DNA of 64,000 nt from Pristiophorus japonicus (GCF_044704955.1 NC_091980.1:128092001-128156000), one strand, 5' to 3'. Shown: positions 2,959 through 64,000, numbered from the stretch's first letter. The notes: a model not told the origin generated them from the letters alone. Numbers and translations are program-made.

Positions 2959-5107
<2,149 letters not shown>

Positions 5108-5184
5108 CAAGATTCTTTTTCACAAATCTAAACTTTGTGGAAACAACAAACTCCTGTAAAGATTCAACCAACTGCTTATGCCTG

Positions 5185-5350
5185 TATTTATACTGCTGGA
5201 TAATCCAGGGTGTGGCAGCCTGCAGGATGACTGACAGTCCTCAATAACCAATCAGAAGTTGCAGCCTCTCAGAGCACCAATCACGTAATGGGAGGAGGGG
5301 AGATGGACTCCCAGAGTCAGTCAGATCTTTGAAGAATGAGCATCATTGGC
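5185..5350 (-). promoter_or_regulatory. Ferritin copy 1 proximal promoter: TATA box and three CCAAT boxes
   Basis: TATAAATA on the minus strand at 5185-5192, ~80 nt upstream of the ATG; CCAAT at 5248 and 5277, ATTGG at 5345; the block is conserved upstream of all four copies. Confidence 0.7.
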
Positions 5351-5784
5351 TGACAACTCAATGAGGATCTCAATTGTCCAAACTTTCCTCAAACACAGTT
5401 CAAATATCCAGAATCACAGGTTAAAATGAATCCTCTATTATTTAGGCTAATCAATTGGGAAAAACTGAAAACATCAGTGCTCCCTTCCAAACATGACAAG
5501 TCAGTGTCTTTTTAATAGTTATGGATTGTTCAGTGGGTTGGTCATTTGCAAGTATCTGCGGGTTTGATGCAACATCCAAAATGATCGGTGAGTATGCAAA
5601 GCAACCAAAAGTGGGTCAGATGAATGCAAATTGCTTGTGATCAATGTGTCAAACACAAATACTCAGATACTCCATCACTTACAAGTTTAGCTCAAATGTG
5701 GAGAGGAACATGCGATGTTCAGTTCTTGTTTTTTATCATGACATTTTGGAAACAATGAAACAGACTGCAGTCCAAAAAGAAAGA

Positions 5785-6235
5785 CAAGCATTTACATAGC
5801 GCCTTTCACAACCTCAGGAAATCCCTGAGAATTTTACAGCCAATAAGGTACTTTTTGAAGTGCAGTCACTTTTGTAATGTAGGAAATGTGGCCGCCAATT
5901 TGCACATGGCAAAACTCCAGAAACAGCAAGGTGAACATGACCACATTATTTGTTTTCAGTGACATTGGTTGAGGACTAAAAATTGGCCAGGTCACAGGGG
6001 ATAACTCCCCTATTCTTCTTCAAAGTAGTGCTCTGAGATCTTTTATGTCCAACTCAGAGGGCAGTCAGCACCACGGTTGACCATCGCATCCTAAAGATGA
6101 CAACTGCGACAGTGCAGCACCCCCTCATTACTGCACTGTAGTGTCAGCCGAGATTCCGTGCTCACGTCTCTGTCGTGGGGACTTGAACCCACTACCTTCT
6201 GACTCAGAGGCGAGAGTGCTACCCATTGAGTTCAT
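5785..6235 (-). mobile_element. tRNA-derived SINE (SacSINE1/DeuSINE-like)
   Basis: Minus-strand head 'ctcaatgggtagcactctcgcctctgagtcagaaggtagtgggttcaagtccc' with A/B boxes; paralog at 53030-53482. Confidence 0.7.
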
Positions 6236-6559
6236 CTGACTGATCTCCGGAACTTAAAACTCTCAGTTACCCACTACGCCAATATCTATCTCAATCATCT
6301 GTGAAATCTCTACGTTATCAGCCTCCGGTATTCCCAGACTCAGCTCCTGTGTTAGAACACGTGTTAGAGCTGAACGCAGAGAGAGGCTGGGAAATATAAA
6401 ACAAGATTGAAACAAACAGCAGGAGCTTGAGCCAAGTGCTGCACAGCAAGGGGAAGGCAGGCTGAAGAGATGGAGAAAGCAGCCAGGTAACTATAGTAGG
6501 AACGACTGGAGATTTGGTCTCATTGCTTAGCGCTTCATCTGAGTTTGCAACATGCCCAA

Positions 6560-6965
6560 GTTTGGATGTTGTTGGCAAGGTCGATATTTATTGCCCATCC
6601 CGAGCGGCCCTGAGAAACCACTGGTGAGACTCCTTCTTGAACCATGTTCAGGTGCTCAATGGTTGAGAGACGACTTGCTCGGTCACTTCAGAGGGCAGGT
6701 AAGAATCAACCACATTACTGTACAAATAGAGTCACATATAAGCTGGACGAGGTAAGGGTGGCAGGTTTCCTTCCCTAAAAGGAAATTAGTGAGCCAATTG
6801 GATTTTTACAACAATCCTAAAAGTCCATGGTTACTGATATCAGTTTGTTTTAAATTTTAAACTGAATCCAAATGATGGTGGGATTTGAACTCACATTCCG
6901 TGTACTATTGGTCCAAGCCTCTGCATTACTAGACCAGTAGCATAACCACTGCACTATTGAACCCC
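6560..6965 (-). mobile_element. HE1-like SINE
   Basis: tRNA-like head near 6960 and a 3' tail shared with the HER1-like LINE end at 34520-34600. Confidence 0.65.
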
Positions 6966-7599
6966 TAACATACAGCTTGAAAAAAGGCTGAATCTCCTTT
7001 ATTCATTCTCTATGGAAATTGGCCTAGTTCACAGAGGCTGGTAGTTATGTCCAATGTATATATTAGCAGTTTACATTAAGATCCCCAACTATGTTACCAA
7101 TTTTTCCTTTCCATACGCAAATTTAGCGAGGCCTCATCCGATGTTCCTTGTGCTTTGGATCAATACCTGCTTCAGCGAACACTTTCCTGTGTTCGCAAAA
7201 TTGAAAGACTTTCAGCAGTAATTCTTGGATGTTGTCTATTCAGAAGGTGCAGACTCTGTACTGTAACAGCACGCCCTTGGCAAAGTGGTTCAAACATGAG
7301 GGACGAGTTCTTCCCGTGACGAGATTACACTAAAATCTCTTTCTCCAGTTCATCCAAATTTAAAACCAGTTAAAGGCTAAGATTAGACTTGTAGCTATGA
7401 CCATCTTAGGCCACCATTGAACCAAAGTCATTAGTCTGGAGGGGAAGAGATTAAAACAGCCACATGCCCAAGCAAATCAGGTTTGATCAAGATCACAACC
7501 AATTTCTCAGCAGAAGTAGTTCTTGTTCAATGCAAGGTCACACGACATTGATCTGAAAATGTGCTCAGTTACTTAAAAGAAGAAAAGGAACAAAAGCAA

Positions 7600-35121: not shown

Positions 35122-36757
35122 ATAGGTAGGAAAAATAAAAAAGCAAACTATTATTTAAATAGGGAGGGATTACAAAATGCTGCAGTACAGAGGGATCTGG
35201 GAGTCCTTGTCCATGAAACTTACAAAGTTAGTATGCAGGTACAGCATTTAATTGGGAAAGCAATCGAATATAGTCTTTGATTTCAAAGGGGACGGAGTAT
35301 AAAAGTAAGCAAGTCCTGCTACAACTGTACAGGACATTGGTGAGACCAACACCTGGAGTACTACATACAGCTTTGGTTTCCTTATTTAAGGAGGGATATA
35401 CTTGCAATGGAGGCAGTTCAGAGAAGGTCCACGAGGTCGATTCCTGAGATGAAGGTGTTGTCACATGGAGAAAGGATAAGCAGGTTGGGCCTATACTCAT
35501 TGGAGTTTAAAAGACTGAAGGGTGATCTTATTGAAACGTAAAAGATTCTGAGGTGTCTTGACAGGGTAGATGCAGAGAGGATGTTTCCCCTCATGGGGGA
35601 AACTCGACGTCGGGGGCGTAGTTTCAGAATAAGGGGATGCACATTTAAAACAGAGGGTTGTGAATCTTTGGAATTCTCTACCCCAGAGATCTGTGGAGAC
35701 TGGGTCACTGAATATATTTCATCATCATCATCATCATAGGCAGTCATTCGGAATCGAGGAAGACTTGCTTCCACTCTTAAAATGAGTTCTTGGGTGGATG
35801 AACATTCGAATTCGAGAGCCACAGACTCTGTCACAAGTGGGACAGATAGTCGTTGAGGGAAGGGGTGGGTGGGACAGGTTTGCCGCACGCTCTTCCTGCT
35901 GCCTGCGCTTGATTTCTGCAAGCTCAGCGCCCTCCCGGATGTACTTCCTCCACTTAGGGTGATCTTTGGACAGGTGTCAGTGGGGATGTCTCACTTTATC
36001 AGGTTGCTTTGAGCGTGTCCGTGTAATGCTTCTGCTGTGCACCTTTGCTCATTTGCCATTAAGGAGTTGAGAGTAGACTACTTGCTTTGAGAGTCTCGTG
36101 TCTGGCATGCGAACTATGTGGCCTGTCCAGCGGAGCTGATCAACTGTGGTCGGTGCTTCAATGTTGGGGATGTTGGCCTGGTTGAGGAAGCTAATGTTGG
36201 TGCATCTGTCCTCCCAGGGGATTTGTAGGATCTTGTGGAGACATCGTTGGTGTATTTCTCCAGCGATTTGAGGTGTCTACTGTTCATGGTCCATATCTCT
36301 GAGCCATACAGGAGGGTGGGTATGACTACAGCCCTGTTGACCATGAGCTTGGTGGCAGTTCTGAGGGCCTGGTCTTCAAACACTCTTTTCCTCAGGCGGC
36401 CGAAGGCTGCACTGGCACACTGGAGGCGGTGTTGGATCTCGTCATCAATGCCTGCTCTTGATGATAGGAGGCTCCCAAGATGTGCTGTCCTCACCGCACA
36501 GCACTGCCCCCATGTTATCAACATCCACGGCGCGGCCCTGGACAACGTGGACCACTTCCCATATCTCGGGAGACTGAATATATGTAAGGTGGAGATCGAC
36601 AGATTTCTGAACGATAAGGGATGCCAGGGTTATGAGGAGAGGACAGGGAAGTGGAGTTGAGGCCATGATCAGATCAGCCATGATCTTATTGAATGGCAGA
36701 GCAGACTCGAAGGGCCAAATGAGCTACTCCTGCTCTTATTTCATCTGTTCTTATATA
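35122..36757 (+). mobile_element. CR1 3' fragment inserted in an HE1-like SINE head, itself interrupted by an RTE
   Basis: CR1 RT C-terminus at 35122-35717 continues at 36573-36757 and ends in a CR1 tail; SINE head halves at ~35090-35120 and 36758-36790. Confidence 0.8.
35718..36572 (-). mobile_element. RTE LINE insertion with (TGA)n tail and 5' inversion
   Basis: TSD actgaatatat at 35707-35717 and 36573-36583; minus-strand RTE 35718-36479; inverted segment ~36480-36572. Confidence 0.85.
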
Positions 36758-53929: not shown

Positions 53930-55197
53930 AGAACGTTTGTTGGAATTTTTTGAGGCTGTAACAAACAGGATGGATAAAGGGGAACCAGTGGATGTGGTGT
54001 ATTTGGAATTCCAGAAGGTATTTGACAAGGTGTCACATAAAAGGTTATTGCACAAGATAAAAGTTCACAGGGTTGGAGGTAATATATTAGCATGGATAGA
54101 GGATTGGCTAACTAACAGAAAACAGAGAGTTGAGATAAATGGTTCATTCTCTGGTTGGCAATCAATAACTAGTGGGGTGTCGCAGTGATCTGTGCTGGGC
54201 CGCCAACTATTTACAATCTATATTAACGACTTGGAAGAAGGGACTGAGTGTAACGTAGCCAAGTTTGCTGATGATACAAAGATGGGAGGAAAAGCAATGT
54301 GTGAGGAGGACACAAAAATACATAGGCAGGCTAAGTGAATGGGGAAAATTTGACAGATGGAGTATAATGTTGGAAAGTGTGAGGTCATGTACTTTGGCAA
54401 AAAAAAAATCAAAGAGCAATATCTTATTTAAATGGAGAAAGATTGCAAAGTGCTTCAGTACAGTGGGACCTGGGGATACTTGTGCATGAAACACAAAAGG
54501 ATAGTATGCATGTATAGCACGTGATTAGGAAGGCCAATGGAATCTTGGCCTTTATTGCAAAGGGGATGGAGTATAAAAGCAGGGAAGTCTTACGACAGCT
54601 ATACAGGGTATTGCTGAGGCCACACCTAGAATACTGCATGCAGTTTTGGTCACCTTACTTACGGAAGGATATACGAGCTTTGTACGGGGTACAGAGACTA
54701 TTCTCTCGGCTGATTCCGCAGATGAGGGGGTTAGCTTATGATGATAGATTGAGTAGACTGGATGTTTACTCGTTGGAGTTCAGAAGGATGAGGGGTGATC
54801 TTATAGAAACATTTAAGATAATGAAAGGGATAGAAAAGATAGAGGCAGAGAGGTTGTTTCCACTGGTCGGGGAGACTAGAACTAGGGGGCACAGCCTCAA
54901 AATACGGGGGAGTCAATTTAAAACCGAGTTGAGAAGGAATTTCTTCTCCCAGAGGGTTGTGAATCTGTGGAATTCTCTGCCCAAAGAAGCAGTTGAGGCT
55001 AGCTCATTGAATGTATTCAAATCACAGATAGATATATTTTTAACCAAAAAGGGAAATTAAGGGTTACGGGGAGCGGGCGGGTAAGTGGAGCTGAGTCCAC
55101 GGCCAGATCAGCCATGATCTTGTTGAATGGCGGAGCAGACTCGAGGGGCTAGATGGCCTACTCCTGTTCCTAATTCTTATGTTCTTATGTTCTTATA
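53930..55197 (+). mobile_element. CR1 LINE 3' fragment
   Basis: KFADDTK and RPHLEYC motifs; (ttcttatg)n tail. Confidence 0.9.
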
Positions 55198-55469
55198 GGA
55201 TTGGAAAGGATGGTTGCACCTATTTTCTATGTTTCTATCGACAACATTTGAATCCATTCATGGATGAGAAGGGGACAAACAGATATCCAGTAGGATTGGA
55301 AAGGATGATTGCCATTTCGTATGAAAAGCACAATGGAATGAAATACAAATGGATACATTTATGGAGGAGCTGCTGGTATTGGATTTATAAATTGATGGAA
55401 CAGACATGGGGGAGGGGAGAACGGGGGTGGAAAAGTTTCAAGAGAAGTATCTATTCAGCTAATTAATTA

Positions 55470-55745
55470 AATAAACCTGGAATAAAAAGCCAGTGTCAGT
55501 ACTGGTGATCATGAAATGAGCAGATTGTCATAAAACCCATGTGTTTCTCAAATCTCCTTTTAGGGAAACAAACCTGCCGTGCTTACCCAGTCTGGCCTAT
55601 ATGTGAGTCCATGCCCACAGCAAAATGTTTGATTATCAACTGCCCTCTGAAATGGCCCAGTAAGGCATTCAGTGCTGCAAGGTGGTTCAACTTCAAGGGC
55701 AATTAGAGATGGGCAATAAATGCTGGCCTTGAGCTCAGACATTGC
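55470..55745 (+). mobile_element. HE1-like SINE 3' part
   Basis: 'caagggcaattagagatgggcaataaatgctggcc' tail. Confidence 0.6.
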
Positions 55746-56274
55746 TGGTCTGTATGGCAGTTACTTGCTCTTTTCCCACACAGCTCAAGAGGAAGTCTAT
55801 AGCAGCAGTGGTATGTTTAGTTTCTGAGTTACCCGCAGTAATAACTCTGAATGCAAAGAGCACAGATGTATTTAGGTGGGAAGCTAGATAAACACATGAG
55901 GCAGAAAGGTATAGAAGGATATGCTCATAGGTCGAGATGAAGTGGGGAGTGAGGAGACTCACATGGAGCTTAAAATACATGTATGGCCCAGTTGGGCTGA
56001 ATGGTCTTTTTCTGTGCTGTAAATTCAATATAATTCTTAAAACACAGGCACCTGTGATGTTTTTCAAATCAACTGAGCTGAAGACTTTGTCAGAAACAGG
56101 AAGTCGTCAAATCCATCAGTCGCAAACCCAGGCCGACTGATGGAATTGTGGCTCATCAATATATGAAATTTTGTGACATCGATACCCGAAAAGTGCCTTT
56201 GAGAGTCGCAAAGACATTAACATGGAATGGCTGAAAATGGCAGTTTAATTGCAAAGAATACAGTGAATCGTCTC

Positions 56275-56494
56275 TGTACTCACTCCTGAGCTTGTATATC
56301 CTTCCTTAAGTAAGGTGACCAAAACTGCACGCAATACTCCAGGTGCGGCCTCACCAATACCCTATACAGTTGCAGCAGGACCTCCCTTTTTTTGTACTCC
56401 ATCACTCTCGCAATGAAGGCCAACATTCCATTCGCCTTCCTGATTACCTGCTGCACCTGCAAACTAACTTTTTTTTGGGATTCATGCACAAGGA
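56275..56494 (-). mobile_element. CR1 RT C-terminal fragment
   Basis: HESQKKVSLQVQQVIRKANGMLAFI...RPHLEYCVQFWSP. Confidence 0.85.
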
Positions 56495-56497
56495 GGG

Positions 56498-56589
56498 AGC
56501 TGTGTGGTGCAATGGATAGCGCATTGGACTTCTAATTAGTATGTTTGTAAAGCATTCAAAAGTTGAGGGTTCGAGTCCCCCTAGAGTCA
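56498..56589 (+). tRNA. tRNA-Arg(TCT)-like copy with a 19-nt intron (56535-56553); probably a pseudogene or retrocopy
   Basis: AGCTGTGTGGTGCAATGGATAGCGCATTGGACTTCTA[intron]ATTCAAAAGTTGAGGGTTCGAGTCCCCCTAGAGTCA resembles vertebrate intron-containing tRNA-Arg-TCT; mismatches in the acceptor and T stems. Confidence 0.8.
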
Positions 56590-56595
56590 GATTTA

Positions 56596-56868
56596 TGCAT
56601 CATCACGCCCGGCAACCAAATTTTAATTTGATTTTACGTTTTAAAATTTAATTTGTTTTAATTGCCAGTGCTTTTAGTGTCCCCCTTCCCTTTTATAGGG
56701 GGCACTGGGGAAAAATTGTGATTTTAGTGCCCAAAAAAAAAAACAAAAAAAAAACACAAAAAAAAAACAAAAAAAAAGGAAAAAAAGGGCCTTGTAAATG
56801 TCTGGTGTGTCACCCAGCTCGGGTGGCATGGTTTAATGTTTTGTTTTACAGATAAACTCTAAAAGAGT
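56596..56868 (+). mobile_element. Tx1 3' tail fused to the tRNA copy
   Basis: Near-identical direct repeat of 61109-61383. Confidence 0.85.
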
Positions 56869-59800
56869 TTCACGCACAAGGACCAATCGTGGAGCAGTGG
56901 AGGCGTGTCCTGCACAGTAGGAGCTGAGCTGCTGAGAGAGGAGCAGCTATCAACCTTAGCTCCTGCCTGGAAGGCCTAGAGAGCCCTGAGACCAGCCCAG
57001 GAAGAGGAGGAAAGGGCTAGCTTGCTACCCATTCAACATCCGGAGGGAGCGGAGGAGCACAGAAACAATTTAACATTTAATACAACTACAGAGAGTTGGA
57101 GAGAGGGGGAAAAACAACAACCTGTGTGGAAGGAGGGACAGTCTACAACATTCTACAGGTGGGTGTTGGTGCATTTCCCCGTAAAGACTTTGCTGTATCG
57201 GTGGGGGGAGGAAAGAAGACCACTTAGGGCCGGAACATCGCGGTGGGTGTGTGTGGGTGGAAGTGTGTGTGGGGGCCTTGCTTACAACTAGGCCCACACA
57301 CAATTGACCCCCCCCCCCCAATTGCCTAGCCTGGGAGAGCTGGAGCTACCAGGCTGAAGATTTTATTTACCACCTCTTTAAACATCGTTAGGAGTGTGTG
57401 CCTGGTGGCTCTAGCTGCCCCAGGTGAAGACATCTTCTCCCCTCACCTGAAGACCACCCCAAAGACTATTGTGTGTTTTGCCATCTGGGGATTGCACCCA
57501 CCCACAGCTGCGAGGGGAGACCTGCCCTCGCAGTCCCCCCCCCTTCCCACCCCCCTCTCTCTTTCTCTGTTACTCTCTGTTTCTCCCCTCTCTCTCTGAG
57601 AGCCCTTTTTCTCCCAAATTAATTGAGAAAAAACAATTGAGACAACTGAGCAGAGGGAGCAAGGCCCCTCCCCAATTGCCAACTAGGGGAGAGGTGTGCC
57701 TCGTTAAGAGCTCCTCTGCTCAGTCTTACTATAAGAGGCCAATTAAGACCATTAAGGCCTGTGACTTTGGGGTGGGTGTAGCCCTTAAAGGGACCCCGTG
57801 ATGGCGACCCCATCCACGCCGGTGGCAGGGCCAGCGAAGACATATGCGCAGGTGGCAACCGCTTCCACGGCACCTCCTGCGCCACCCGCTGCCCTGCCAC
57901 CATTCAGACTTATTACAAAAAAACACGGGGTCAAGAGCTACACTCACCCCACAATGAGCATCGAGGAGTGCGTGCGGGCGATGGCTGGGGTAGTCGGCCC
58001 CTCGGCCATTGTCGCAGCCTCCAAGATGTCTGGGAAGGCCGTGTTCTTCCTGGGGTCGGAGCGGGCGGTGTCCCTGGCCCTTGAAAAGGGGCTCACGGTG
58101 GGCGGGACGTTCCTGCCGGTGGACTCTCTCGAGGCCACCGCGCAGAGGGTCATCATTTCAAACGTCCCGCCCTTTGTTCCCGCTGAGCTCCTCCTCCCTC
58201 ACCTACACCAACTGGGTCAAGTCGTCCAGGACCCGGCCCTGCGGACGGTGTACGAAGCGAAGAAGGCCGCGCTGAAGGACCTGCAGCTCGACGGGTCCCG
58301 AGGCGCATTCGTGAGGTCGCGGATCCGGTTCCTGCGGGATCTGGACCGCGGCTCCCCCTTCTTCTACTCGCTGGAAAAAAGGCAGAGTGTCCGTAAGCAG
58401 CTCTTGACGCTGCTGGCCGACGACGGCTCTTTCGACTCGGATCCGGAGGGCGTCAACAACAGGGCCCGTGAATATTACGGGGCTCTGTTCTCTCCGGATC
58501 CGTCCAGCGAGGAAGCGCGTAGAGTTTTGTGGGAGGACCTGCCGAAGGTCAGCCCGGAGGGCGCCGAAAATCTGGAAGCTCCGCTAAGCCTGGCGGAGCT
58601 GACCGGTGCCCTCGACCGGCTCTCGAGGGGAAAATCCCCGGGGCTGGACGGGCTGACCGTGGAGTTCCACAGTGCGTTCTGGGACGTCCTGGGGAGCGAC
58701 TATGCGCGGGTCTTGGGAGAAAGTCTGGCGACCGGGGAGATGCCCCTCTCTTGGCGCAGGACAGTCATCGTCCTGCTGCCTAAGAAGGGCGATCTCCGCC
58801 TCCTTAAGAACTGGCGCCCGGTCTCCCTCCTCAGCACGGACTACAAAATCTTCGCCAGGGCGATGTCTGCTCGCCTTGGTGCCGTGCTGGACCACATGAT
58901 CCACCCCGACCAGTCCTACACGGTCCCGGGCCGGACAATCCACGACAACATCCATCTGGTCCGGGACCTCATCCATTGTTCCCAGGAGGCTGGTCTGTCG
59001 GTCGCCTTCCTATCCCTCGACCAAGAGAAGGCGTTCGACAGGGTGGATCACGACTATCTGCTCGGAACTCTGCGCGCTTTCGGGTTCGGGACGCATTTCG
59101 TCGCCCGGATCCGACTTTTGTACGCCGCCGTGGAGTGTCTGATTAAGGGTAACGGGTCCTTGACGGCGCCCCTTCGCTTTGGGAGAGGGGTGCGCCAGGG
59201 ATGCCCCATGTCCGGCCAGTTATACGCCGTTTGCGTGGAGCCTTTCCTGCGCCTCCTGCGGACGAGGTTGATGGGACTGGCTCTGCAAGGGCCGGGCGTG
59301 GAGGTCGTCCTCTCGGCTTACGCCGATGACGTGCTCCTCGCGGTAGAGGATCCCGCTGACCTGCGGAGGATGCGTGAGTGCCAGGAGATTTACTCGGCCT
59401 CGTCCTCCGCCAGGATCAACTGGGAGAAATGTTCCGGACTCCTGGTGGGTCAGTGGCGGGTGGACTCCCTGCCGGAGGAGCTCAGGCCTTTTGCCTGGAG
59501 CACGACCCATCTCCTCTATCTGGGAGTCTACCTTAGCCCCGACGAGGGAGCCTGGCCGGCGAACTGGCAGGAGCTGGAGGCCAAGGTCGCCGCTCGCCTA
59601 GGGCGCTGGACAGGACTGCTCCGAGTGCTGTCCTACAGGGGTCGAGCGCTAGTCATAAACCAGCTGGTGGCTGCAATGTTGTGGTACCGGCTGGTCACTT
59701 TGACCCTTCCCCCTGCGTTTGTCGCCAAGATACAGAAGAAGCTGGTGGACTTCTTCTGGAACAACAGGAAGCACTGGGTCTCTGCTGCGGTCTTGAGTCT

Positions 59801-61383
59801 CCCGCTTGAGGAGGGCGGTCAGTCGTTGGTGTGCGTCAGCGCCCAGCTCGCGACTTTCCGTCTTCAGACCCTGCAGAGATACCTTTACGTCGAGCCCCCT
59901 CCTAGGTGGTGTGCTCTGGCGACGTATTTCTTCCGCCAGCAGCGCGACCTCAATTACGACACGCAGCTCCTGTTTGTGAACTTGGGGGGTGTCAGGACCG
60001 CCCTCCGGGAGCTGCCTGTCTTTTACAGGGAACTCATCAGGGTCTGGAACAAAGTCTCCACCAAGCGCAGCTCTCCGCCGGCTGGAGTGGCGGCCGTCCT
60101 GCAGGAGCCGCTGCTCGGAATCCGTATCTCCACGACCGAGGTTTTATGTGGCGGTCGGAAAAGAGGGCTGTGGCTGGTGAGGTGACCAGGGTCAGGGACC
60201 TGCTCGATGGCGGAGGAGCAGGCTGGATGGCGCCAGACACGCTGGCACGGCGCCTAAATTCTGCCAACGTCCGCCACACGGCCGATGCCATCGAGTCGCT
60301 AAAAACAGCTCTGGGCCTTGACTCCGTTAGGTGCATCGAGGAGGCTCAAGCACGTGGGGAGATCCCGTCCGAACTGACCCCCGTCCGGACGGAATTCCTC
60401 ATCGGCGCCAAACCCCGGAACCTCCCTCGGGGGCCGGCGCCTCACAACTTGAGCCGCCTCGGGGAAATCCCCTCCGTGCCTTTCAGTTCCGCGCGGAGGG
60501 GTTTCTTGTACGGGCTGCTCCTGCACACTCTCAACTTTGCCATCCTCGCCTGCCGTCCGGACACGCCATGGCGTACCATCTTGCCGTCCGGAGGAGGCAG
60601 GGGTCCCCGATGGAGGGCACTCTACGCAGGGGTCCTCCCACTATTCGTCAGGGACTTGGCCTGGAGGGTGGTGCACGGAGCAATGCCGTGCAACAAATTT
60701 TTAAGCCGGTTCACGGACTCCCAGGCCGCCTGCAATTTCTGCGGTCTGGAGGAGTCCGTGTTCCATGTTTTTATTGAGTGCACGAGGTTGCAGCCCCTGT
60801 TCCATTATTTGAAGGGGCTGCTCCTGAAATTCTGGCTGCACTTCAGTCCCACTCTCCTGATCTTTGAGCAACCTGTGCGGAGGGGAGCGGGTAGGTCCGA
60901 AGGCCTCCTCGTAGGACTGCTCCTGGGCAGGGCCAAGGGTGCCATCAGCCGGTCCAGGCAGCGGGCGGTCGAGGGGGTCGTTCAACCTGACTGCCTGCCT
61001 CTCTTCCGCTCTTACATCCGGTCCAGGGTGTCCTTGGAGATGGAGCACGCGGTGTCCACCGGTATGCTCGCGGCCTTCCGCGAGAGGTGGGCACCGGAGG
61101 GACTGGAGTGCATCATCACGCCCGGCAACCAAATTTTAATTTGATTTTACGTTTTAAAGTTTAATTTGTTTTAATTGCCAGTGCTTTTAGTGTCCCCTTC
61201 CCTTTTATAGGGGGCACTGGGGAAAAATTGTGATTTTAGTGCCCAAAAGAAAAAAAACAAAAAAAAGAAAAACACAAAGAAAAACAAAAAAAGGAAAAAA
61301 AGGGCCTTGTAAATGTCTGGTGTGTCACCCAGTTCGGGTGGCATGGTTTAATGTTTTGTTTTACAGATAAACTCTAAAAGAGT
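56869..61383 (+). mobile_element. Young Tx1-clade (L1 group) non-LTR retrotransposon with an internal deletion
   Basis: GC/CpG-rich; ORF1 N-terminus, RT and C-terminal zinc finger (CNFCGLEESVFHVFIEC); A-rich 3' UTR; outer boundaries are inferred. Confidence 0.88.
57798..61144 (+). CDS. Tx1 ORF1(N-term)-ORF2(RT) in-frame fusion lacking the endonuclease; one frameshift at ~60117
   Basis: ORF 57798-60185 joins KTYAQV/VIISNVPPFV (ORF1) at ~58217 to KSPGLDGL, WRPVSLL, LDQEKAFD, QGCPMS and YADD; continues in ORF 59906-61144. Confidence 0.8.
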
Positions 61384-61533
61384 TTCATGCACAAGGACCA
61401 ATGGTGGAGCTTTGGAGGCGTGGCCTATTCAGTTGGAGCTCTGCTGTTGTGAGAGAAGGAACTCCCTGCTTTAGCTCCTGTCTGGAAGGCCTGGAGTGAA
61501 CCCAGAGAACAGCCCAGGAAGAGGAGGAGAGGG

Positions 61534-64000
61534 CTGCAAATTTTGTTCCACTACACTTTGTCCCCTCTTCCAGGTCATCTACGTATATTGTAAACAGTTG
61601 TGGTCGCAGCACCGATCCCTGTGGCACACGACTAACCACCGATTTCCAACCCGAAAAGGACCCATTTATCCGACTCTCTGTTTTCTGTTAGCCAGCCAAT
61701 TCTCTATCCATGCTAATACATTTCCTCTGACTCCGCGTACCTTTATCTTCTGCAGTAACCTTTTGTGTGGCACCTTATCGAATGCCTTTTGGAAATCTAA
61801 ATACACCACATCCATCGGTACACCTCTAGCCACCATGCTCGTTATATCCTCAAAGAATTCCAGCAAATTAGTTAAACATGATTTCCCCTTCATGAATCCA
61901 TGCTGCGTCTGCTTGATTGCACTTTTCCTATCTAGATGTCCTGCTATTTCTTCCTTAATGATAGCTTCAAGCATTTTCCCCACTACAGATGTTAAACTAA
62001 CTGGCCTATAGTTACCTGCCTTTTGTCTGCCCCCTTTTTTAAAAAGAGGCGTTACATTAGCTGCTTTCCAAGCCACTGGTCCCTCCCCAGAGTCCAGAGA
62101 ATTTTAGTAGATTATAACGAATGCATCTGCTATAACTTCTGTCATCTCTTTTAATACCCTGGGATGCATTTCATCAGGACCAGGGGACTTGCCTACCTTG
62201 AGTCCCATTAGCCTGTCCAGCACTACCCTGCTAGTGATAGTGATTGTCTCGAGGTCCTCCCTTCCCACATTCCTGTGACCAGCAATTTTTGGCATGGTTT
62301 TTGTGTCTTCCACTGTGAAGACCGAAGCAAAATAATTGTTTAAGGTCTCAGCCATTTCCACATTTCCCATTATTAAATCTCCCTTCTCATCCTCTAAGGG
62401 ACCAACATTTAGTTTAGTCACTCTTTTCCGTTTTATATATCGGTAAAAGCTTTTACTACCTGTTTTTATGTTTTGCGCAAGTTTACTTTCATAATCTATC
62501 TTTCCTTTCTTTTTGCTTTCTTAGTCATTCTTTGCTGTCGTTTAAAATTTTCCCAACCTTCTAGTTTCCCACTAACCTTGGCCACCTTATATGCATTGGT
62601 TTTTAATTTGATACTCTCCTTTATTTCCTTGGTTATCCATGGCTGGTTATCCCTTCTCTTATCACCCTTCTTTTTCACCGGAATATATTTTTGTTGAGCA
62701 CTATGAAAGAGCTCCCTAAAAGTCCTCCACTGTTCCTCAATTGTGCCACGTTTAGTCTGTGTTTCCAGTCTACTTTAGCCAACTCTGCCCTCATCCCACT
62801 GTAGTCCCCTTTGTTTAAGCATAGTACGCTCGTTTCTGACACAACTTCCTCACCCTCAATCTGTATTACAAATTCAACCATACTGTGATCACTCATTCCG
62901 AGAGGATCTTTTACTAGGAGATCGTTTATTATTCCTGTCTCATTACACAGGACCAGATCTAAGATCGCTTGCTCCCTTGTAGGTTCTGTAACATACTGTT
63001 CTAAGAAACAATCCCGTATGCATTCAATGAATTCCTCCTCAAGGCTACCCCGTGCGATTTGATTTGACGAATCGATAGTAGGTTAAAATCCCCCATGATT
63101 ACTGCCATTCCTTTTTCACATGCCTCCATTATTCCCTTGATTATTGCCCGCCCCACCGTGAAGTTATTATTTGGGGGCCTATAAACTACGCCCATCAGTG
63201 ACTTTTTCCCCTTACTATCTCCAATCTCCACCCACAATGATTCAACATTTTGTTCATTAGAGCCAATATCGTCTCTCACAACTGCCCTGATATCTTCCTT
63301 TATTAACAGAGCTACCCCACCTCCTTTCCCTTCTTGTCTATCTTTCCGAATTGTCAGATACCCCTGTATGTTTAATTCCCAGTCTTGGCCACCCTGCAAC
63401 ACGTTTCTGTAATGGCCACCAAATCATACCCAATTTTAATGATTTGTGCCGTCAACTCTTTTATTTATTTTGAATGCTCCATGCGTTTAGGTAGAGTGTT
63501 TTAATACTAGTTTATAAACCATGATTTTTAGTGTTGACCCCTCCTGCAGCCCCTTTATATTCATACATATTGTCCCTTCCTATCACCTTGTGGTTTACAC
63601 TTACCCCAGTGCTACTCTGCTCTGTTGCCTCCTGCCTTTTGCATTCTTTCTTGGGGTCCTGTTCATCTGAGCTCTCACCCACTCTAACTAGCTCAGAGCC
63701 CTCTCCTGTGTTCCGAATACTCCTCGCATTGAGGCACAGAGCTTTCAGGCTTGCCTTTTTATTACACTTTGATCATTTAGAATTTTGCTGTACAGTGGCC
63801 CTTTTTGTTTTTTGCCTTGGGTTACTCTGCCCTCCACTTTGACTCATCTCCTTTCTGTCTTTTGCTTTTCTCTACTTTTGTTTCCCTCTGTCACCCTGCA
63901 TTGGTTCCCATTCCCCTGCCATATTAGTTTAACTCCTTCCCAATAGCACCAGCAAAGACTCCCCCTCGGACATTGGTTCCGGTCCTGCCCAGGTGCAGAC
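61534..64000 (-). mobile_element. CR1 LINE ORF2 (APE to RT), cut at KFA(DD); runs beyond the window
   Basis: GVVYRPPN, KSPGPDEMHPRVLKE, NYRPVSLTS, DFQKAFDKVPH, QGSVL. Confidence 0.92.

Follow-up and report, generated by a model that had tools for sequence, protein, structure and literature searches.

In the window, the 64,000-nucleotide stretch of Pristiophorus japonicus DNA analyzed here, a tRNA-Arg sequence that retains an intron runs almost directly into the 3′ end of a Tx1 retrotransposon, and the two lie between copies of a 14-mer. An earlier note on this DNA had left a choice between a retroposed pre-tRNA/Tx1 chimera, a nascent SINE dependent on Tx1, and the footprint of a Tx1 that targets tRNA genes. 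How the two sequences came to be joined, and whether the joining was a single accident or one of many similar events, is the question addressed here.

The Chimera in the Window

All of the parts and coordinates in the earlier note were recovered in the sequence, and both Rfam and ARAGORN support tRNA-Arg(TCT) as the head. The chimera (56481..56882) and the elements around it, including three copies of the target-site duplication (TSD), are as follows.

56262..56494, minus strand: host CR1 LINE, C-terminal side of ORF2, up to the target site; open reading frame at 56280-56531 (minus)
56481..56494, plus strand: TSD, copy 1 (native CR1 sequence); identical 14-mer left of other insertions
56495..56594, plus strand: retrocopy of the primary tRNA-Arg(TCT) transcript, from Rfam, ARAGORN and flank comparison; 3-nt leader 56495-56497, tRNA 56498-56589, intron 56535-56553, trailer 56590-56594 with its last three bases the T of the terminator
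56595..56595, plus strand: single extra A at the head/Tx1 junction, unlike most source genes and unlike the Tx1 base before the break
56596..56868, plus strand: 5′-truncated Tx1, last codons of ORF2 and 3′ UTR without a poly(A) tail; unit positions 6869-7141
56869..56882, plus strand: TSD, copy 2; 14-mer match
56883..61383, plus strand: second Tx1 of the stack, both ends complete; unit positions 1-1345 then 3980-7141, with an RVT_1 hit
61384..61397, plus strand: TSD, copy 3; 14-mer match after the 3′ end of the long Tx1
61398..61533, plus strand: third Tx1, a 5′ stub truncated by a deletion, with a divergent 5′ UTR; 74% to unit 1-133, TSD included
61534..63490, minus strand: host CR1 resumed; ~94% over 1.3 kb to the right flanks of other insertions

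The tRNA (56498-56589) scores 32.9 bits in Rfam, where the gathering score is 29, with model positions 1–71 aligned. With introns allowed, ARAGORN calls a tRNA-Arg(TCT) with a 19-nt intron; run without introns, it called no tRNA gene in the window. Internal A and B boxes are present by the match to the tRNA model, and the A box also fits the pattern used below to find other heads. The 14-mers at 56481-56494 and 56869-56882 differ by one mismatch, and the window has five matches to the 14-mer at up to two mismatches, as compared with 1.21 expected; none of 100 shuffles reached five. The earlier note does not mention the third copy (61384-61397). That the 14-mer is Tx1's own sequence or an LTR-like repeat was ruled out, as the 23,495 empty sites show it to be native CR1, and CR1 continues beyond it. 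Outside an A-rich run, the Tx1 tail (56596-56868) is identical to the downstream copy at 134 of 135 and 81 of 82 aligned bases; the run itself (56733-56786) lies inside the Tx1 3′ UTR and was ruled out as a poly(A) tail. The tRNA and the truncated Tx1 have the same orientation and share one TSD, as in small-RNA/LINE chimeras of the U6/L1 type. Because no TSD separates head from tail, they are attributed to a single event, and two separate insertions were ruled out.

The stack continues from the chimera into the deleted Tx1, the Tx1 stub and then CR1. The second Tx1 has an internal deletion of ~2.6 kb, with ORF1 fused to ORF2 and the endonuclease gone, and the sequence at 56596-57018 is repeated at 61109-61535. 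The left part of the host CR1 is 92–93% identical to the left flank of other insertions, and the resumed CR1 begins ~230 bp past the target (position 224–232 of the right flanks). The earlier remark that CR1 does not resume right after the second repeat was correct in that another Tx1 5′ end comes next, because Tx1 stacks at its target; CR1 does resume, but at 61534. Window positions 54475-64000 and G000:C4:128.29-128.31 Mb form a segmental duplication with 98–99% identity, in which the twin's stack is longer by one full-length Tx1 unit. Two older CR1 copies in the window, at 35204-35217 and 54477-54490, have one-base variants of the target and no insertion.

A 25-mer spanning the tRNA-Tx1 junction was found, at up to two mismatches, at two places in 5.9 Gb, once in the window and once in a twin at a distance of 143 kb, the flanks of which are 98–99% identical to those of the window; the evidence on the junction is that of the assembly, with two copies. 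In a search of sequencing runs for words from this region, four DNA runs from one sample contained at least half of the words, and these runs may be the assembly's own source; RNA runs shared no more than 0.07 and are not taken as evidence. The nascent SINE of the earlier note, a tRNA head with A and B boxes amplifying together with its Tx1 tail, has the anatomy of head plus LINE tail in its favor, and passages of PMC4494074 describe a crocodilian Tx1-Mar that mobilizes SINEU. A SINE would, however, have many dispersed copies with one head-tail junction, and this junction, at up to two mismatches, occurs only in the window and its duplication twin; therefore there is no SINE family at that stringency. 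Furthermore, Pol III would probably terminate at T-runs within the first 60 bases of the tail and so fail to reach the Tx1 end, and other Arg(TCT) heads (L004, L020) are joined to different partners. We regard an emerging SINE of this structure as very improbable; taken alone, the window chimera is a dead one-off copy that was not amplified.

Native tRNA-Arg(TCT) loci have upstream and downstream flanks in common; of these, the window copy has retained the 3-nt leader and the trailer as far as the T-run, and nothing more. Among 30 loci examined (40 of 219 candidates were scored), the source type closest to the window head is that of L003, at 95% and with shared variants, and the first base of the head is also the first base of the tRNA-Arg in one of the chains described below (L004). 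As judged from its sequence, the head represents an entire primary Pol III transcript, with leader, intron and trailer into the T-run. The extra A at 56595 may be templated, since one source locus (L010) also carries an A there. Several contigs carry a duplicated unit, 9 kb or more in length, that contains many degenerate tRNA-Arg(TCT) copies (L003, L005-L019, L023-L028, L211 and L213), and these copies may supply the captures with poorly processed precursors.

Dewa-like Tx1 families target tRNA arrays, inserting at a fixed offset, and the tail in the window begins 6 bp past the tRNA. The window as the footprint of a Dewa- or Kibi-like Tx1 just downstream of a real tRNA gene, the remaining proposal of the earlier note, is nonetheless hardly credible. 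None of the 22 tRNA-Arg loci with native flanks (among the same 30) has this Tx1 within 1.5 kb, let alone at a fixed offset, the native flanks are lost on both sides of the window copy, with CR1 in place of the tRNA gene's own upstream flank, and there are thousands of insertions at the CR1 site without a tRNA.

A Tx1 Element Inserted in CR1 Coding Sequence

The 7,141-bp Tx1 unit has matches to PF03372, PF00078 and PF13966 (zf-RVT, at its cutoff) and comprises an APE endonuclease, a reverse transcriptase (RT) and a C-terminal zinc motif; every copy inspected has stops or frameshifts. Across 728 aligned residues of the endonuclease and RT, its ORF2 and Xenopus Tx1L are 53% identical (E value 9e-243). 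Tx1L is the closest relative of ORF2 that has an informative name, whereas human L1 ORF2 reaches only 227 bits. The presence of ORF1 and ORF2 and the closeness to Tx1L place the element among the non-LTR retrotransposons of the Tx1 clade, and it has the sequence-specific insertion and fixed-length TSD of that clade (22–23 of 30 tails on target, 14-bp TSD).

Tx1 inserts in the antisense orientation at one site in the RT-coding region of CR1, and the empty site on the CR1 strand translates as RDLGVLVHESQK. Filled sites, comprising the end of the Tx1 tail, the 14-mer and the CR1 continuation, gave 6,064 exact matches in the genome (0 for the reversed control) and the empty target gave 23,495, so that about a fifth of exact sites are filled, in a ratio that compares two different patterns and includes some duplicates among the filled sites. 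A pattern restricted to the tail gave 364 matches, of which the first 30 loci were examined regardless of flank. The tail was followed by the 14-mer with up to two substitutions in 22 of the 30 and by a 14-mer with a 2-bp insertion in one more; seven were off target, so the specificity is strong but not strict. Five of these seven still begin TTCA, and one off-target copy (L319) also has a 14-bp TSD. At the 5′ side, there are 80 direct junctions at 63 distinct Tx1 positions, at which the identical 14-mer follows the CR1 left flank. The 14-mer, which the earlier note had offered as an unproven TSD, is borne out by these other insertions; a target within CR1 was not among the readings of that note. 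Insertion with duplication regenerates the target, so that subsequent copies stack there, and one array consists of CR1, four 7.1-kb Tx1 units with the 14-mer between them, and CR1.

Amplification of a composite CR1 was considered as the source of all 6,064 filled sites and explains only part of them: four of the 30 share a 32-bp insert, and the other breakpoints are diverse. In those four (L062, L063, L065 and L068), an identical 32 bp of Tx1 tail with the TSD lies inside CR1 at four dispersed places, and the CR1 copy with this insert seems itself to have been amplified. In another arrangement (L020-L022, L029 and L030), CR1 is followed by a truncated pre-tRNA-Arg, a partial 5S and a different Tx1-like tail at the CR1 target; it recurs on several small contigs with shared flanks and suggests a second family that uses this target. 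In L067, L077, L080, L086 and L087, only ~10–12 nt of the Tx1 end are present, as insertions or final segments and also without a head, which suggests frequent early stalling of TPRT. A LINE aimed at the coding sequence of another LINE, with about a fifth of exact sites filled on the comparison above, is a target class not found in the open-access literature searched, where we also found no report of a Tx1 that targets CR1; Repbase, Kojima and Fujiwara 2004 or the supplements of PMC4494074 could list it.

Captured Small RNAs at the Target Site

A pattern made up of the CR1 left flank, the TSD and an A-box consensus gave 61 matches at 60 sites, and its control gave none. By manual reading, the 60 heads comprise 52 of tRNA type and eight of SINE type, the latter presumably HE1-like; with evident duplicates removed (L104, L177, L180 and L179), they represent at most 56 distinct events. 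The tRNA-type heads are Val, Arg, Asp, Tyr, Gly, iMet, Trp, Gln, Leu, Glu, Asn and Ser, although these are degenerate copies and some labels are uncertain. The first base is a purine in 54 of the 60. The intron is kept in all 16 first-position heads of intron type (13 flagged by ARAGORN and three read from printed clusters), and CCA follows none of the 45 first tRNAs called by ARAGORN. Beneath the heads, the Tx1 part is 11–13 nt in 30, longer in 25, absent in three and unclear in two. Sense heads outnumber antisense heads by 60 to 1, the antisense control with a B-box pattern having given two hits, one real and one a chance match, but the two patterns are unequal in sensitivity. Rfam gave no match in 20 of the examined loci, a set that does not include L085. 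Ten loci (L091, L113, L117, L153, L164, L176-L178, L180 and L275) contain a tRNA-Arg family with TCG in the best copies and a 16-nt intron; to our knowledge, human Arg(TCG) genes have no intron.

Such captures make up ~2–3% of truncated 5′ junctions. The filter that defines 1,693 of these junctions is passed by 31 of the 60 heads, or 1.8%, which is a lower bound. Among the first 100 filtered junctions on one contig, taken without selection, three have small-RNA heads (interval ~0.6–9%, n = 96) and three others resemble mutated empty sites. Because the A-box pattern requires an exact left flank and a full-length head in sense orientation, it under-counts tRNA halves and truncated heads such as L073 and L280. 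On the sequence evidence, the approximately 60 captures appear to be independent and mostly single events. No report of the capture of many unspliced precursors in chains was found in the open-access literature searched.

At least nine of the 60 heads hold two or more RNAs (seven by detection, and L159 and L173 by reading). When an RNA is an internal member of a chain, its first base mostly coincides, give or take about two bases, with the one found where that RNA is outermost (L004, L112, L114, L117, L164, L174, L188 and L206). In the longest, L004 (1294-1790; G000:C1:232.466 Mb), Ile, 5S, Arg, Val and an internally deleted iMet follow one another with no spacers; this locus has no CR1 target and no Tx1 tail, and no TSD was seen by eye. 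In 10-kb stretches around two native Arg genes there is only one other tRNA gene, 3 kb away. Some chains, such as L099, could be read-through products of native gene clusters. L320 (G000:C7:222.64 Mb) has two opposite chains within one TSD, an antisense Tyr precursor and 5S, followed by two sense tRNA precursors and an 11-nt tail, and this arrangement fits twin priming with jumps at both ends.

Initiator tRNA is also found at the target with no Tx1 sequence. The iMet trailer is joined directly to the target in 23 matches (L187-L209, L316-L319), all of them read-through copies with varied 5′ ends; two tandem arrays account for seven, and additional heads are present on three, one of these heads presumably 7SL-like. 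In L317, which has apparently native flanks, the trailer continues as AAGA(G/A)TTCAT, corresponding to the Tx1 end and the first bases of the target. This match suggests that RNA-DNA pairing aids priming and that the Tx1 RNA reads through into the target. The iMet read-through RNA is a candidate proto-SINE.

Mechanism and Comparison with Known Systems

Our preferred interpretation, with a probability of roughly 0.75, is that the window contains a one-off retrocopy of an unprocessed pre-tRNA-Arg and the last 273 bases of a CR1-targeting Tx1, likely joined by template jumping of the RT, and the retroposed chimera of the earlier note is supported in this form. The Tx1 endonuclease would make one nick at the CR1 site and another 14 bp from it. 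TPRT would then start at the 3′ end of the Tx1 RNA, which lacks poly(A), probably aided by pairing of read-through target bases with the nicked strand, and synthesis would stop early, after 273 nt in the window and ~11–13 nt in half of the captures. The enzyme would jump to a nuclear Pol III precursor, at its free oligo(U) 3′ end, and copy it to its first base, sometimes repeatedly, before the cDNA is joined to the TSD. We infer jumping by the Tx1 enzyme from the structure of the DNA.

Primary Pol III transcripts have a 5′-triphosphate and a 3′-OH. RtcB joins a cyclic-phosphate end to a 5′-OH, and ligation is sharply lowered by a 3′-OH donor or a 5′-triphosphate acceptor in experiments excerpted from PMC6789731. 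Serial end-to-end jumping, on the other hand, is described in vitro for R2 RT in parts of PMC8594491. Whole precursors with poor ends for RtcB, together with jumping by R2 in vitro, therefore favor jumping at the target over ligation by RtcB. We consider it unlikely that the pre-tRNA was first joined to a fragment of Tx1 RNA by RtcB or another ligase and that the chimera was then retrotransposed. Ligation has a precedent in U6/L1, where a full-length sense small RNA ending in T's sits on a truncated LINE (passages of PMC6789731 and PMC11838501), and RtcB does act on intron-containing tRNAs. Moreover, extracts ligated 5′-triphosphate substrates, probably after cleavage, and other ligases may exist (again from passages of PMC6789731). 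However, the heads here are whole unspliced precursors rather than 5′ exons, chain members begin at the first base and so at the triphosphate that is a poor RtcB acceptor, 30 of 60 heads lie on only 11–13 nt of Tx1, and the chains on both strands in L320 need synthesis at the target.

The native flank past the terminator matches the Tx1 side of the window junction at six of seven bases (seven of seven for L008), offset by the extra A, and homology may therefore have guided the switch. The stalled cDNA would in that case have annealed to a read-through tRNA transcript or to tRNA gene DNA past the terminator, and short overlaps are also present at some other junctions (L113, L154 and L159). Such annealing is nevertheless quite unlikely, as the match is offset by one base and the head ends precisely with the 3-nt leader, as for RNA rather than DNA. 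Microhomology with the TSD is also not enriched at the direct 5′ junctions, where two or more bases are shared in 6 of 63, as compared with 7.2% expected (p = 0.3).

The preferred reading of template jumping can be extended from the window to the family. We give somewhat better than even odds to the proposal that serial, ligase-independent jumping by this Tx1 has stored nascent germline Pol III transcripts as a genomic library at a single site and that the family presents SINE birth in progress, with iMet RNA inserted without Tx1 at ~20 places and 5S, tRNA and 7SL heads stacked in single events. There is debate over template jumping and RNA ligation as the source of small-RNA/LINE chimeras, and U6 provides most of the in vivo evidence. 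With thousands of insertions at one fixed target, both a denominator (~2–3% of truncated junctions) and many independent junctions become available. The chains that begin at first bases point to template jumping in the germline by an enzyme related to that of L1, and composite 5S/tRNA SINE heads could arise directly in this way.

Several of these features have already been described, namely transposon-targeting Tx1 elements, tandem stacking around the TSD, small-RNA heads and U6/LINE chimeras (passages of PMC4494074 and PMC4476161). Tx1L of Xenopus laevis (YTX2_XENLA), with which the present ORF2 shares 53% identity, likewise belongs to the Tx1 clade and inserts into another transposon, Tx1D (from a passage of PMC4494074); its target is a piggyBac-type DNA transposon, whereas that of the element described here is the RT-coding region of a CR1 LINE. 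The crocodilian Tx1-Mar/SINEU system, as presented in the same passages of PMC4494074, is similar in having a transposon-targeting Tx1, tandem copies around the TSD, small-RNA 5′ heads acquired by template switch, and non-autonomous RNAs that share the target. The targets named in the text of that article, apart from its supplements, are Mariner, Harbinger, LTR elements, microsatellites and U2, and not CR1 as here, and its heads are U1/U2 in amplified families, whereas those at CR1 are diverse pre-tRNAs in mostly single events.

U6/LINE-1 chimeras resemble the captures in that a full-length sense Pol III RNA ending in T's lies on a 5′-truncated LINE within one TSD (passages of PMC6789731 and PMC4476161), and rare triple chimeras of U6/LINE type are known (PMC4476161, in part). 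U6 has a cyclic-phosphate end and is joined by RtcB (PMC6789731, in part), whereas here the precursors are of many types and as many as five RNAs form a chain (L004). Human tRNA/LINE-1 chimeras similarly have tRNA sequence on a truncated LINE with a TSD but, in the portion of PMC11838501 concerned, comprise 21 loci that are typically tRNA halves and mostly antisense; the heads at the CR1 target are full-length, unspliced and mostly sense, properties that our search pattern favors. The serial jumping of the Bombyx mori R2 RT is an in vitro activity of an enzyme of the R2 clade, from the parts of PMC8594491 that describe it, whereas the insertions at the CR1 target are a genomic record and involve an L1-related Tx1 enzyme.
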